Shown: positions 4,152 to 31,975 of the stretch, piece after piece
Position numbering within the stretch: the stretch's first letter is position 1
Layout: each line of letters begins with the position of its first letter
NCBI RefSeq assembly: GCF_013167455.1
Contig: NZ_CP038328.1
Origin: Escherichia coli O157:H7
GTDB lineage: Bacteria > Pseudomonadota > Gammaproteobacteria > Enterobacterales > Enterobacteriaceae
DNA: 64,000 nt
Reading direction: 5' to 3' (one strand)
Translations under genes and position numbers: made by a program
Notes under the pieces: generated by a model
Databases searched by the model: none
What the model was told of the DNA's origin: nothing
Seen by the model: only the letters and a program-made list of their open reading frames with translations

Positions 4152-4763
4152 ATGCGACTGTGGTTAATTCGTCATGGCGAAACACAAGCGAATGTCGATG
4201 GTCTGTACAGCGGTCATGCGCCCACACCCCTGACCGCACGCGGTATTGAGCAAGCGCAAAATCTGCATACACTGCTAGATGATGTTTCCTTTGACCTGGT
4301 TTTATGCAGTGAACTGGAACGGGCACAGCATACCGCGCGACTGGTTCTCAGTGACCGCCAGCTCCCCGTTCATATCATCCCTGAACTCAACGAAATGTTT
4401 TTTGGCGACTGGGAGATGCGACATCATCGCGACCTCATGCAAGAAGATGCCGAAAACTATAGCGCGTGGTGCAATGACTGGCAGCATGCTATCCCCACGA
4501 ACGGTGAAGGATTTCAGGCATTTTCGCAACGTGTGGAACGCTTTATCGCAAGGCTTAGTGAATATCAGCACTATCAGAATATTTTAATCGTCAGCCATCA
4601 GGGCGTACTTAGTCTGTTAATTGCTCGTTTAATTGGCATGCCTGCCGAGTCTATGTGGCATTTTCGCGTTGACCAGGGGTGTTGGAGCGCCATTGATATA
4701 AACCAAAAATTCGCGACGCTACGCGTCCTCAATAGCCGTGCCATCGGGGTCGAGAATGCATGA
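4152..4763 (+). CDS. cobC: alpha-ribazole phosphatase / histidine phosphatase family
   Basis: 203 aa from second ATG (better spacing to GGAGG); RHGE catalytic motif (LIRHGETQAN); track ORF starts one codon earlier at 4149. Confidence 0.9.
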   Translation: MRLWLIRHGETQANVDGLYSGHAPTPLTARGIEQAQNLHTLLDDVSFDLVLCSELERAQHTARLVLSDRQLPVHIIPELNEMFFGDWEMRHHRDLMQEDAENYSAWCNDWQHAIPTNGEGFQAFSQRVERFIARLSEYQHYQNILIVSHQGVLSLLIARLIGMPAESMWHFRVDQGCWSAIDINQKFATLRVLNSRAIGVENA

Positions 4764-9957: not shown

Positions 9958-10096
9958 CGTAAAGCAGGCATCTGATGTGTCAATTTCTGTAAATGACGTT
10001 AACAAAGTCACGCGGAAAGTCAGATGCCTGCCGGTAGTGCATTTGCTATAGTAGGGCACTTTTTTTAATTCCATCACGGATGTCGTAGTTCAGACC

Positions 10097-11308
10097 ATGA
10101 ATACCATTTTTTCCGCTCGTATCATGAAGCGCCTGGCGCTCACCACGGCTCTTTGCACAGCCTTTATCTCTGCTGCACATGCCGATGACCTGAATATCAA
10201 AACTATGATCCCGGGTGTACCGCAGATCGATGCGGAGTCCTACATCCTGATTGACTATAACTCCGGCAAAGTGCTCGCCGAACAGAACGCAGATGTCCGC
10301 CGCGATCCTGCCAGCCTGACCAAAATGATGACCAGTTACGTTATCGGCCAGGCAATGAAAGCCGGTAAATTTAAAGAAACTGATTTAGTCACTATTGGCA
10401 ACGACGCATGGGCCACCGGTAACCCGGTGTTTAAAGGTTCTTCGCTGATGTTCCTCAAACCGGGCATGCAGGTTCCGGTTTCTCAGCTGATCCGCGGTAT
10501 AAACCTGCAATCGGGTAACGATGCTTGTGTCGCCATGGCCGATTTTGCCGCTGGTAGCCAGGACGCTTTTGTTGGCTTGATGAACAGCTACGTTAACGCC
10601 CTGGGCCTGAAAAATACCCACTTCCAGACGGTACATGGTCTGGATGCTGATGGTCAGTACAGCTCCGCGCGCGATATGGCGCTGATCGGCCAGGCGTTGA
10701 TCCGTGACGTACCGAATGAATACTCGATCTATAAAGAAAAAGAATTTACGTTTAACGGTATTCGCCAGCTGAACCGTAACGGCCTGTTATGGGATAACAG
10801 CCTGAATGTCGACGGCATCAAAACCGGACACACTGACAAAGCAGGTTACAACCTTGTTGCTTCTGCGACTGAAGGCCAGATGCGCTTGATTTCTGCGGTG
10901 ATGGGCGGACGTACTTTTAAAGGCCGTGAAGCCGAAAGTAAAAAACTGCTAACCTGGGGCTTCCGTTTCTTCGAAACCGTTAACCCACTGAAAGTAGGTA
11001 AAGAGTTCGCCTCTGAACCGGTTTGGTTTGGTGATTCTGATCGCGCTTCGTTAGGGGTTGATAAAGACGTGTACCTGACCATTCCGCGTGGTCGCATGAA
11101 AGATCTGAAAGCCAGCTATGTGCTGAACAGCAGTGAATTGCATGCGCCGCTGCAAAAGAATCAGGTCGTCGGAACTATCAACTTCCAGCTTGATGGCAAA
11201 ACGATCGAACAACGCCCGCTGGTTGTGTTGCAAGAAATCCCGGAAGGTAACTTCTTCGGCAAAATCATTGATTACATTAAATTAATGTTCCATCACTGGT
11301 TTGGTTAA
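10097..11308 (+). CDS. dacA: D-alanyl-D-alanine carboxypeptidase PBP5
   Basis: 403 aa ORF; signal peptide; SxxK (SLTK), SGN and KTG motifs visible. Confidence 0.97.
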
Positions 11309-29866: not shown

Positions 29867-30012
29867 TCCTCTGATTTACAAAACACGCTAATTCGTCTTT
29901 CATAAACCATGACGATTAAGAATTATACATAATGCGCTGCATTGAGGAATTCCCTGAATGTGACGCAAATCACTTCAAAGAGTGAGCAACAGTCAGTATC
30001 ATCATGTGAGTT

Positions 30013-30047
30013 AAACCCTCGCCGCCTGACGGTGAGGGTTTTCTTTT
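30013..30047 (+). terminator. rho-independent terminator downstream of rna
   Basis: aaaccctcgccgcctgacggtgagggttttctttt: 9-bp stem with one G-U pair, then T-rich tail. Confidence 0.55.
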
Positions 30048-30095
30048 GGGTATGTTTATCTGCGACACTCGCAGTACCGACGACATGGAGTAAAA

Positions 30096-30506
30096 ATGTC
30101 CAGACCAACTATCATCATTAACGACCTGGATGCCGAACGCATCGATATTCTGCTGGAGCAACCCGCCTATGCTGGTTTGCCAATCGCCGACGCGTTAAAC
30201 GCAGAGTTGGATCGCGCCCAAATGTGTTCGCCAGAAGAGATGCCACACGACGTGGTGACAATGAACAGCCGGGTTAAATTCCGCAATCTTAGCGATGGCG
30301 AAGTGCGTGTGCGCACGCTGGTGTATCCGGCAAAAATGACCGATAGCAATACTCAGCTTTCCGTTATGGCTCCGGTAGGTGCCGCACTGCTGGGACTGCG
30401 CGTTGGCGATTCCATTCACTGGGAACTTCCGGGCGGCGTTGCAACCCACCTTGAAGTGCTGGAACTCGAATACCAGCCAGAAGCTGCTGGCGACTACCTG
30501 CTTTAA
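30096..30506 (+). CDS. rnk: regulator of nucleoside diphosphate kinase (GreA/GreB-like)
   Basis: 136 aa ORF recognised as Rnk. Confidence 0.9.
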
Positions 30507-30538
30507 TCCCATCTGTACAAGCGATAACTCGCTTTGCC

Positions 30539-30565
30539 CAGAGGATGCACTCGCATCCTCTTTAT
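30539..30565 (+). terminator. candidate terminator hairpin downstream of rnk
   Basis: cagaggatgcactcgcatcctctttat: 9-bp perfect stem (agaggatgc/gcatcctct) with short T-rich tail. Confidence 0.45.
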
Positions 30566-30643
30566 GCAAAATCAGCAATTTTTCCTGGTTCTCACTGTTC
30601 ACTTTTGCTGCAAAATTATTCCGTTTCGTTTGTGGGAATAACC

Positions 30644-30733
30644 ATGGCAGAAGCATTTTACATCCTGATAGGATTTCTGATTATGGCGGCGATTATCGTC
30701 ATGGCTGTCCTTTACCTCGAAAACCACTCCTGA
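30644..30733 (+). CDS. candidate small hydrophobic protein (29 aa), hypothetical
   Basis: ATG preceded by GGGA about 6 nt upstream; encodes MAEAFYILIGFLIMAAIIVMAVLYLENHS, a single predicted TM helix; lies after the rnk terminator; I do not recognise it as an annotated gene. Confidence 0.3.
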   Translation: MAEAFYILIGFLIMAAIIVMAVLYLENHS

Positions 30734-30736
30734 CGC

Positions 30737-31975
30737 TCATATTGTTCCCCCCGGCATCGCATTCACCAGACCTGAAACCGCCTTCTGCGCCGCCTCTGCG
30801 CTTTGTGCACCGGGTACCAGAATCACCTTACGGCACTCCTCTTCACGCTTTTCAAAGATCTCATATCCCCGGGCGGCCTCTTCAAACGGCATATAGTGGG
30901 TAACAATTTCTTCTGGTTTCAGTAATCCTTTCTCAATTAACGGTAATAATTCTCCCAGCCATGCGTGAACGTGGGTCTGTCCCATTTTAAACGTCAACCC
31001 TTTATCAAAGGCGTCGCCAAACAGGAAACCGTGAATAAATCCAGCGTAGACGCCCGGTACGCTAACAATGCCGCCACGCCTGACCGCCGCAATACACTGA
31101 CGCAACGCTTTACCGCTGCTGCCCTCCAGTTTCAGGTTAGTCAGCACCGTTTCCGTGGTGCTGCCTTTCGCTTCAAAACCGACGGCGTCTATTACTGCAT
31201 CCACGCCCCGGTGACCTGCCGTTTGTTCAATAATTGACTGTGCCGGATCGCTATCTTCATCGAAATTAATCGGGATCGCGCCGTAGCGGTCAGCGGCGAA
31301 ACGCAAGCGGTAGGGATGATGATCAACAACAAAAATCTGTTCCGCACCGAGCAACCGTGCACAGGCGATTGTCAACAATCCCACAGGACCGGCACCATAG
31401 ACAGCAACGCTTGAACCTTGTTGGATCTGCGCATTTTTTGCTGCCTGCCATGCCGTTGGCAGAATATCAGAAAGGAAAAGGGCTTTATCATCTGAAAGCA
31501 AAGGCGGTACTTTAAACGGCCCCACATTCCCTTTAGGGACACGGACATACTCCGCCTGTCCACCAGGAACGCCACCATACAGGTGACTATAACCAAACAA
31601 TGCCGCGGGAGCTGGTATCTGTTTTTTATTGAGCGCAGCGCCTTTACCCGCATTGGTATTTTCGCAGGCGGCATATTGCTGCAGTCGACAGAAAAAACAG
31701 TCGCCACAAGCAATGACGAACGGAATTACCACCCGGTCGCCTTTTTGCAAATTTTTTACATCCTTTCCGGTTTCAACTACTTCCCCCATAAATTCATGAC
31801 CAAAAATATCGCCATGTTTAACCTGGGGTATTTTGCCTCGATAAAGATGGAGGTCAGAGCCACAGATCGCCGTTGCCGTTATACGCAGAATAATATCATC
31901 TGCCTGTTCAATGCCCGGATCGGGAACATTTTCTACCTGAACGTGATGTGGGCCGTGATAAGTCAATGCTTTCAT
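30737..31975 (-). CDS. ybdR: Zn-dependent alcohol dehydrogenase family oxidoreductase
   Basis: 412 aa ORF; zinc-ADH signatures ([14 protein letters not shown]) and a second Cys cluster (CGDCFFC). Confidence 0.9.

Follow-up and report, generated by a model that had tools for sequence, protein, structure and literature searches.

yldA between rnk and ybdR in Escherichia coli O157:H7: a known 29-codon small membrane protein gene and its probable relationship to YoaI

The yldA locus and its transcription

The window analyzed here is a stretch of 64,000 nucleotides from the genome of Escherichia coli O157:H7 (RefSeq assembly GCF_013167455.1, contig NZ_CP038328.1). On its plus strand, rnk, encoding a nucleoside diphosphate kinase regulator, occupies positions 30096..30506, and on the minus strand ybdR, encoding a zinc-dependent alcohol dehydrogenase, occupies positions 30737..31975. 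Between them, co-directional with its upstream neighbor rnk and convergent with ybdR, lies a short ORF on the plus strand (30644..30733), which comprises 29 sense codons beginning with an ATG (30644-30646) and a TGA stop codon at 30731-30733, and whose translation is MAEAFYILIGFLIMAAIIVMAVLYLENHS. A Shine-Dalgarno-like GGGA on the plus strand (30634..30637) stands 6 nt 5' of the ATG and probably acts in ribosome binding. The ATG, the length of 29 codons and the position of the GGGA had been described in an earlier note on this DNA and are read directly from the sequence, as is its statement that the ORF ends 3 nt from the convergent ybdR stop, the two stops being separated by positions 30734-30736.

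Two other in-frame start codons lie 5' of this ATG, namely an ATG at 30545, which would yield a product of 62 aa, and a GTG at 30632, which would yield one of 33 aa. Despite these upstream starts, conservation across species begins at ATG 30644. The 33-aa form is annotated in few genomes. When the regions upstream of the ORF are aligned, they have in common a TCACCC block, a TTAATC-GTTT block and the G-rich, Shine-Dalgarno-like block, the last of which (GGGGA, GGGA or GGAA) is found at the same position in all 36 aligned regions.

Although the earlier note regarded this ORF as unrecognized, it corresponds to the annotated gene yldA. By exact-sequence look-up, the encoded protein is an exact match to the UniProt entry YLDA_ECOLI, and it scores well above the cut-offs of both curated family models, with 57.9 bits against a cut-off of 45 for the YldA equivalog of NCBIfam (NF041476, covering residues 1-29 of 29) and 73.6 bits against a cut-off of 27 for Pfam PF23689 ("YldA-like"). 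In E. coli K-12 MG1655 the gene is b4734 (YP_009518757.1), located at 643330-643419, and the K-12 protein does not differ from that of the window in any of its 29 residues, in its position between rnk and ybdR or in its strand relations. When 501 nt around the ORF were used as a query, 5422 of the 5426 complete E. coli genomes gave a match, and in those aligning over its full length the RefSeq annotation reads "yldA: small membrane protein YldA", so that the annotation check proposed in the earlier note had a positive outcome. Over these 501 nt, the DNA of the window is 100% identical to that of O157:H7 strains and 98.8% identical to that of K-12-like strains. The gene order in strain J53 is rna-rnk-yldA-ybdR-uspG, and the annotation of MG1655 gives the same order.

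A full-text literature search with the peptide led to one paper (VanOrsdel et al. 2018, PMC6001520), in which YldA was detected in LB cultures by means of a chromosomal C-terminal SPA tag and immunoblotting. A specific immunoblot band was obtained for the SPA-tagged protein, and the sequence given in Table 1 of that paper is identical to the protein encoded by the ORF of the window (PMC6001520). The epitope-tagging experiment suggested in the earlier note had thus already been published, with a positive result. Having been named, detected and included in the reference annotation since 2018, yldA is already known, and its recovery here is the rediscovery of an annotated and experimentally supported gene, not a discovery. 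Its value is that of a positive control, in which a genuine 29-codon gene was picked out from raw sequence.

The region between rnk and yldA contains a stem-loop on the plus strand (30540..30561) with a 9-bp stem and a 4-nt loop, AGAGGATGC-ACTC-GCATCCTCT, located 34 nt past the rnk stop and 82 nt before the yldA ATG, which is a putative rnk terminator. The "rnk terminator hairpin" of the earlier note is therefore present as a hairpin, but as a terminator it is weakened by a poor T tail (TTAT in the window) and was not called in the terminator scan of the window. The sequence of its stem (GAGGATGC/GCATCCTC) is conserved at 67 of the 83 rnk loci compared, irrespective of the presence of yldA. 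No sigma-70 consensus promoter was found from the hairpin to the yldA ATG in either of the two E. coli haplotypes described below, and the sole nearby match to a sigma-70 promoter on the plus strand (30657-30684) falls within the yldA ORF itself. Considering the lack of a consensus promoter together with the poor T tail of the hairpin, read-through from rnk would be at least as likely a source of yldA transcription as a promoter of its own, although a non-consensus promoter is also possible. Two promoter candidates noted by eye, TTCACC and CTTAAT, were dropped since their spacing was wrong.

Downstream of yldA, the terminator scan found no terminator up to ybdR in the window, and in the haplotype to which the window belongs the yldA transcript would have to run antisense into ybdR. 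In the haplotype that lacks ybdR, the sequence 3' of yldA shows at most a weak hairpin and a run rich in T. A published RNA-seq survey counts ybdR-yldA among the convergent "excludons", pairs whose transcripts overlap, and reports it from at least 50% of the samples (PMC12288877); both genes are among those up-regulated by fluoride under anaerobiosis (PMC10100675). Searches against Rfam matched the known rnk leader at 29942-30050 and nothing else, so that neither yldA nor the 3' hairpin of rnk gave a match to an sRNA; the predicted RNA structure of 30500-30760 shows no unusual stability (z = -1.4).

A possible additional layer of regulation was seen outside E. coli. A perfect CTTAAT-N5-CTTAAT repeat, placed 42 nt before the yldA ATG, occurs only in nine Enterobacter/Lelliottia loci, and judging from this repeat yldA may additionally be under PmrA control in the Enterobacter group. 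A PmrA box was rejected for the window, where the E. coli counterpart of the sequence is degenerate. The PmrA-box-like repeat of Enterobacter is offered as a lead and not as a finding on the novelty of the window.

Conservation and two allelic forms

Orthologs were sought at the rnk loci of 80 species-representative genomes of Enterobacteriaceae, so that only copies of yldA beside rnk were covered. An unbiased Smith-Waterman scan and a motif scan selected the same 34 of the 80 loci, and within this search of rnk loci each of the 34 carries an ORF of exactly 29 codons about 140 nt past rnk. The genera concerned are Escherichia, Citrobacter (several species), Enterobacter, Lelliottia, Leclercia, Pseudenterobacter, Kosakonia and Phytobacter. 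The consensus of the encoded proteins is MsEiLxITLxFLIxxAIIVxAVLYLERHW, in which M1, E3, A21, V22, L25 and E26 are invariant across species and I7, A16, V19 and L23 nearly so.

The substitution pattern is that of a coding sequence. Entropy amounts to 0.66, 0.48 and 1.18 at the first, second and third codon positions, respectively, and the mean pN/pS is 0.39 in the yldA frame, compared with 1.25 and 1.42 in the shifted frames, while synonymous sites are near saturation (pS 0.6-0.8). It is thereby shown that yldA is a protein-coding sequence under purifying selection. The conservation check named in the earlier note was borne out by the 29-codon orthologs in 34 of 80 species and by the in-frame pN/pS of 0.39. 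Together with the published detection of the protein, conservation and purifying selection also uphold its reading of the ORF as a genuine gene for a small, single-pass membrane protein, the membrane helix being a prediction.

In the other 46 of the 80 species, including Salmonella subspecies, the Citrobacter freundii group and Kluyvera, yldA is not found at the rnk locus, and its absence beside rnk in these species suggests that the gene is dispensable. With respect to ybdR, 12 species have both genes, 22 have yldA only, 10 have ybdR only and 36 have neither, a co-occurrence that is not significant (Fisher p=0.21 over 80 species, not phylogenetically corrected). Wherever both genes occur, their stops are separated by 2-11 nt. 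Since the presence of yldA is independent of that of ybdR, the tail-to-tail arrangement is not needed for the persistence of yldA.

Within E. coli, two deeply diverged haplotypes were found, whose point of divergence lies immediately past the rnk hairpin. Haplotype A, to which the window belongs, combines allele 1 of yldA with ybdR and is present in 3600 E. coli genomes. Haplotype B, present in 1816-1818 E. coli genomes, carries allele 2 (MSEALGITAFYIFIAAIIVAAVLYLEQRW) and lacks ybdR, uspG being the next gene; genomes of this type cease to align with the window at about position 30563. Alleles 1 and 2 together account for about 5418 of the 5426 E. coli genomes, with a median of one place per genome, which shows that yldA is a single-copy gene kept in essentially all E. 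coli as one of two diverged allelic forms. Allele 2 is also found in E. albertii and E. marmotae. The two alleles share only 54% identity at the DNA level and 52% at the protein level, with AAIIV.AVLYLE common to both, and their tails differ (...ENHS in allele 1 versus ...EQRW in allele 2).

Within E. coli allele 1, sizeable subpopulations differ at some of the sites that do not change from species to species, with L25F in no fewer than 1000 contigs and V22A in 451. Changes of Glu3 and Glu26 are very rare in this allele. The L25F/V22A polymorphism could indicate that the constraint on allele 1 is relaxed.

The predicted helix and the relationship to YoaI

Hydropathy predicts a single transmembrane helix formed by codons 4-25 (AFYILIGFLIMAAIIVMAVLYL; 30653..30718 on the plus strand). 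As the earlier note had proposed in describing one helix flanked by charged residues, the stretch between Glu3 and Glu26 (residues 4-25) consists of 22 consecutive uncharged residues. The best 19-residue Kyte-Doolittle mean of the protein is 2.97, a value compatible with a transmembrane helix that exceeds those of all 156 ATG-started ORFs of 25-40 codons in the window, whose maximum is 2.31. Both flanking residues, Glu3 (codon at 30650..30652, plus strand) and Glu26 (codon at 30719..30721, plus strand), are invariant in 34 of 34 distinct orthologs, and in MAFFT and hhalign alignments they stand opposite Glu8 and Glu31, respectively, of another small membrane protein, YoaI.

YoaI (E. coli b1788, 34 aa, NCBIfam NF041475) is a small membrane protein under PhoB control, which binds the sensor kinase EnvZ and activates it. 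In an NCBIfam scan of YldA, it is the only other family with a meaningful E-value. All 34 YldA orthologs match the YoaI model at E<=0.01 (best 1.2e-8), in every case with a score short of its 45-bit cut-off, and each family other than YoaI is matched by at most three of the 34. The scores against the YoaI equivalog model, 22.5 bits for the allele of the window and 30 bits for allele 2, fall below its cut-off of 45, and YldA is accordingly not a YoaI ortholog and may have a different target. In the reciprocal direction, E. coli YoaI matches the YldA model in the same register (E=0.035), YldA being its second-best family among 18,950 models. Comparison of the YldA alignment with YoaI by hhalign gave a probability of 91.5% and an E-value of 8.5e-7, with a gapless pairing of YldA E3, I7, V22, L23 and E26 with YoaI E8, I12, V27, L28 and E31; MAFFT independently pairs YoaI E8, V27 and E31 with YldA E3, V22 and E26.

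Hydrophobic bias was addressed with a background of 12,079 six-frame segments (765 kilo-residues, including real membrane proteins), against which a custom YldA HMM was run. YoaI was the first non-YldA match, at 16.9 bits, followed by the next at 6.9 bits. The score of 18.9 bits obtained for YoaI was reached by none of 3000 full shuffles and by none of 3000 block-preserving shuffles, and when only the core of YoaI was shuffled with its ends fixed, the maximum was 17.8 bits as against the real 18.9. For short hydrophobic proteins of 29-34 residues, profile scores are intrinsically less trustworthy, despite the shuffle and real-sequence controls.

A joint YldA/YoaI profile, searched against 1.84 billion representative sequences, retrieved 64 proteins, consisting of YldA, YoaI and intermediates between them. 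Examples of the latter are ...MNDPAFFDTLCITAVFLVIASALVMSVLYLERRW and MYDQQFVETLIIFLSFLSVGGILVASVLYLERRH, with tails such as SVLYLERRW. Two of the intermediates lie in a yoaI neighborhood, convergent with a YeaK-type tRNA_edit gene and with DUF441/YeaL, DUF444/YeaH and PrkA/YeaG nearby, and both of these bear a precomputed match to PF23689:YldA. Positional YoaI orthologs of other genera have the YldA-type tail SVLYLERRW/H and match the YldA Pfam model.

The two proteins have in common a single helix, a gapless alignment over 27-29 residues, a Glu at both ends of the helix and the tail motif V-L-x-[LI]-E-[RN]. Their genes both abut a convergent gene tail to tail, with 0 nt between yoaI and yeaK and 3 nt between yldA and ybdR, and both pairs are listed as excludons (PMC12288877). 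YldA differs from YoaI in lacking its five N-terminal residues MNDQM, and of the invariant Ser26-Val27 of YoaI it retains the Val (V22, in 34 of 34 orthologs) whereas the Ser is replaced by Ala21 in 34 of 34. The genomic positions also differ, yldA lying past rnk and yoaI at yeaK-yeaL, and both genes coexist in one genome.

Taken together, these profile searches and alignments show YldA and YoaI, as far as such comparisons allow, to be members of one small-protein superfamily that are homologous and not orthologous, and by the same comparisons YldA is a shorter YoaI paralog. As a joint claim, it is very probable that the ORF is yldA and a real gene and that YldA is related to YoaI. The YldA-YoaI link is not mentioned in the literature searched and, within that literature, is apparently new.

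Possible functions of YldA

In the literature searched, no experiment on the function, partners, localization or topology of YldA was found, and the characterized relative offers the main guide. YoaI resides in the inner membrane and has a short tail on the cytoplasmic side; binding to EnvZ was shown by two-hybrid assay, and YoaI increases the output of EnvZ-OmpR. The substitutions E31A and E31Q abolish this binding as well as the activation, and overexpression of YoaI prolongs lag phase (PMC11429745). A conserved juxtamembrane Glu of the YoaI type is found in YldA as Glu26, which is present in 34 of 34 orthologs opposite YoaI Glu31. By analogy, our best guess, held only tentatively, is that YldA could be a YoaI-like modulator of a membrane sensor kinase. 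YldA would adopt an N-out/C-in orientation in the inner membrane, a topology suggested by the Arg/His-rich ERHW tail of most orthologs and by the analogy with YoaI. It would then bind a sensor histidine kinase of the membrane, be it EnvZ or a different one, making contact through its helix and the invariant juxtamembrane Glu26, and would tune kinase output as YoaI does for EnvZ-OmpR. The allele of the window, which ends in ENHS, is entirely devoid of Arg and Lys, so that its topology cannot be argued from the positive-inside rule.

The same general logic, in which a tiny inner-membrane protein shifts the activity of a histidine kinase, is known from MgrB and SafA, which act on PhoQ, and from MzrA, which acts on EnvZ (PMC12648545, PMC11429745). 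No sequence relation of YldA to any of these three was detected, all of them being absent from the matches of the NCBIfam and Pfam scans. MgrB and SafA act mainly through periplasmic regions, and, unlike them, the 29-residue YldA with its 3-residue N-terminus cannot supply such a region. Four observations run counter to a kinase-directed role, namely the score below the YoaI cut-off, the change from Ser26 to Ala21, the lack of positive charge in the ENHS tail of the window allele and the dispensability of the gene in many genera.

Alternatively, YldA could act on a partner other than a kinase, such as a transporter or a respiratory or other inner-membrane complex, in the manner of AcrZ, MgtS or CydX; this is a substantial possibility, though short of an even chance. 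Most characterized bacterial small membrane proteins bind varied larger membrane proteins (PMC12648545), and the position of YldA below the YoaI equivalog cut-off and its Ala in place of the invariant Ser26 fit such a partner as well, whereas the sole characterized relative is a kinase activator whose key residue is invariant in YldA. In a variant of this explanation, YldA might be functionally tied to the neighboring stress genes rnk, ybdR and uspG, as the location of all orthologs found directly past rnk and the shared fluoride induction of yldA and ybdR under anaerobiosis (PMC10100675) could suggest. Against such a tie, the products of rnk, ybdR and uspG are soluble and have no evident need for a membrane partner, the presence of yldA is independent of that of ybdR by the phylogenetically uncorrected Fisher test given above, and the linkage to rnk arises partly by construction, only rnk loci having been searched.

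A role in cis, in which transcribing or translating the yldA stretch over the 3' end of the ybdR mRNA would lower or couple the expression of ybdR and rnk and the peptide itself would be secondary, is very unlikely. The closeness of the stops, with 3 nt between them in the window and 2-11 nt in all loci that have both genes, the lack of a terminator between yldA and ybdR and the ybdR-yldA excludon in at least 50% of RNA-seq samples (PMC12288877) are all in keeping with it. However, it is the protein that is conserved, with saturated synonymous sites (pS 0.6-0.8) and a pN/pS of 0.39 in this frame only; moreover, yldA occurs without ybdR in 22 of 34 species and in about one third of E. coli genomes, and it is homologous to YoaI, whose function is shown at the protein level.

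Even less probable is that YldA is a type-I-toxin-like peptide restrained by antisense pairing with the 3' end of the ybdR mRNA or by another antisense RNA. A short and very hydrophobic single-helix peptide with reported overlapping antisense transcription (PMC12288877) and a patchy presence among genera would suit this description, but cells growing normally in rich medium do accumulate the tagged protein (PMC6001520), the gene occurs as a single copy with conserved synteny and vertical conservation and is neither multi-copy nor island-borne, it is kept without ybdR in many lineages, and Rfam found no sRNA here. Its relative YoaI is, in addition, a signaling modulator, although overexpression of YoaI does prolong lag phase.

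The fallback of the earlier note, a chance ORF in the rnk 3' UTR without a selected product, accords with the mere 29 codons, the weak Shine-Dalgarno sequence, the lack of an own consensus promoter and the absence from the rnk locus in 46 of 80 species, yet it has a negligible probability, being contradicted by the uniform length of 29 codons across 34 species from at least eight genera, the frame-specific codon-position pattern and pN/pS, the retention of the conserved motif by alleles with 54% DNA identity, the experimental detection of the protein (PMC6001520) and the existence of curated family models.

Returning to the role as a sensor-kinase modulator, its fullest form, which is doubtful as a whole, holds that YldA is a truncated YoaI paralog whose Glu26 would bind and tune a sensor kinase, that the alleles would differ in target or strength, and that PmrA control is possible in Enterobacter. 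The analysis also makes modest additions to what was known of yldA, namely that nearly all E. coli retain it, in the form of two ancient haplotypes, and that its presence in Enterobacteriaceae is patchy and independent of ybdR. The YoaI link and the two E. coli haplotypes are leads and not findings on the novelty of the window. For the uncharacterized YldA, the link to YoaI names a residue, Glu26, and a class of partner; if the proposed role is true, YldA would represent a second, differently regulated small-protein input to two-component signaling.

Structured elements flanking rnk

Upstream of rnk, positions 29942-30050 (+) match the known Rfam element rnk_leader (RF01771) at 124.9 bits, and a terminator-like hairpin at 30013-30041 forms a portion of this leader. 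A second stem-loop lies 3' of rnk, at 30540-30561 in the window and at approximately 2940-2965 in the species-representative rnk loci (L003-L082). Its stem (GAGGATGC/GCATCCTC) is kept in 67 of 83 loci spanning many genera, with a variable loop, and a search of Rfam returned no match to it. Because the stem is conserved and the T tail is wholly missing in most loci that lack yldA, the element is possibly not just a terminator; judged from its sequence, it may have a role beyond, or different from, intrinsic termination.

Start, upstream repeat and convergent neighbor of yldA

Two in-frame alternatives precede the ATG of yldA at 30644 on the same (+) strand: an ATG at 30545, inside the rnk 3' hairpin, which would give a 62-aa product, and a GTG at 30632, which would give 33 aa and is annotated as the start in a few genomes (P0013). 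Cross-species conservation of the frame is seen only from the ATG at 30644 onward.

In nine Enterobacter and Lelliottia species (loci L026, L030, L035, L041, L044, L045, L049, L056 and L057), a perfect CTTAAT-N5-CTTAAT direct repeat is located 5' of yldA, 42 nt from its ATG. Across 883 kb of fetched sequence, searched on both strands, all nine exact occurrences of this repeat fall at that position. By sequence, it resembles a PmrA box, as CTTAAT is the half-site preferred by PmrA and the spacing matches that of the box. The counterpart in the window, at approximately 30604-30625, is degenerate.

Both yldA (30644-30733) and yoaI, which encodes its proposed paralogue (10079-10183 in locus L083), adjoin a convergent gene tail to tail, with gaps of 3 nt between yldA and ybdR and 0 nt between yoaI and yeaK. 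Both pairs appear in a published list of convergent excludons (PMC12288877).

Two haplotypes in the E. coli population

A comparison of 5426 genomes revealed that the segment between the rnk hairpin and uspG exists in E. coli as two deeply diverged haplotypes, with a breakpoint directly 3' of the hairpin. The divergent segment extends from 30563 to approximately 32190 in the window and over 4165-4463 in the E. coli locus L002. The haplotype of the window, carrying yldA allele 1 together with ybdR, accounts for approximately 3600 of these genomes, and the other, carrying allele 2 without ybdR, for approximately 1818; the two alleles share 54% identity. In strain HS-02, the allele-2 region (H42, NZ_CP172818.1 630519-630699) is only 57% aligned, at 91.7% identity, and bears no feature annotation, and this partial alignment may reflect deletion or decay of yldA. 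In addition, a 67-aa database protein, P0031, begins with residues 1-19 of allele 2 and continues into allele 1, of which it contains the translation of the upstream region followed by the complete sequence. Since it fuses both alleles, a recombinant or a tandem remnant of both haplotypes is present in some genome, and may hint at how the two yldA haplotypes originated.
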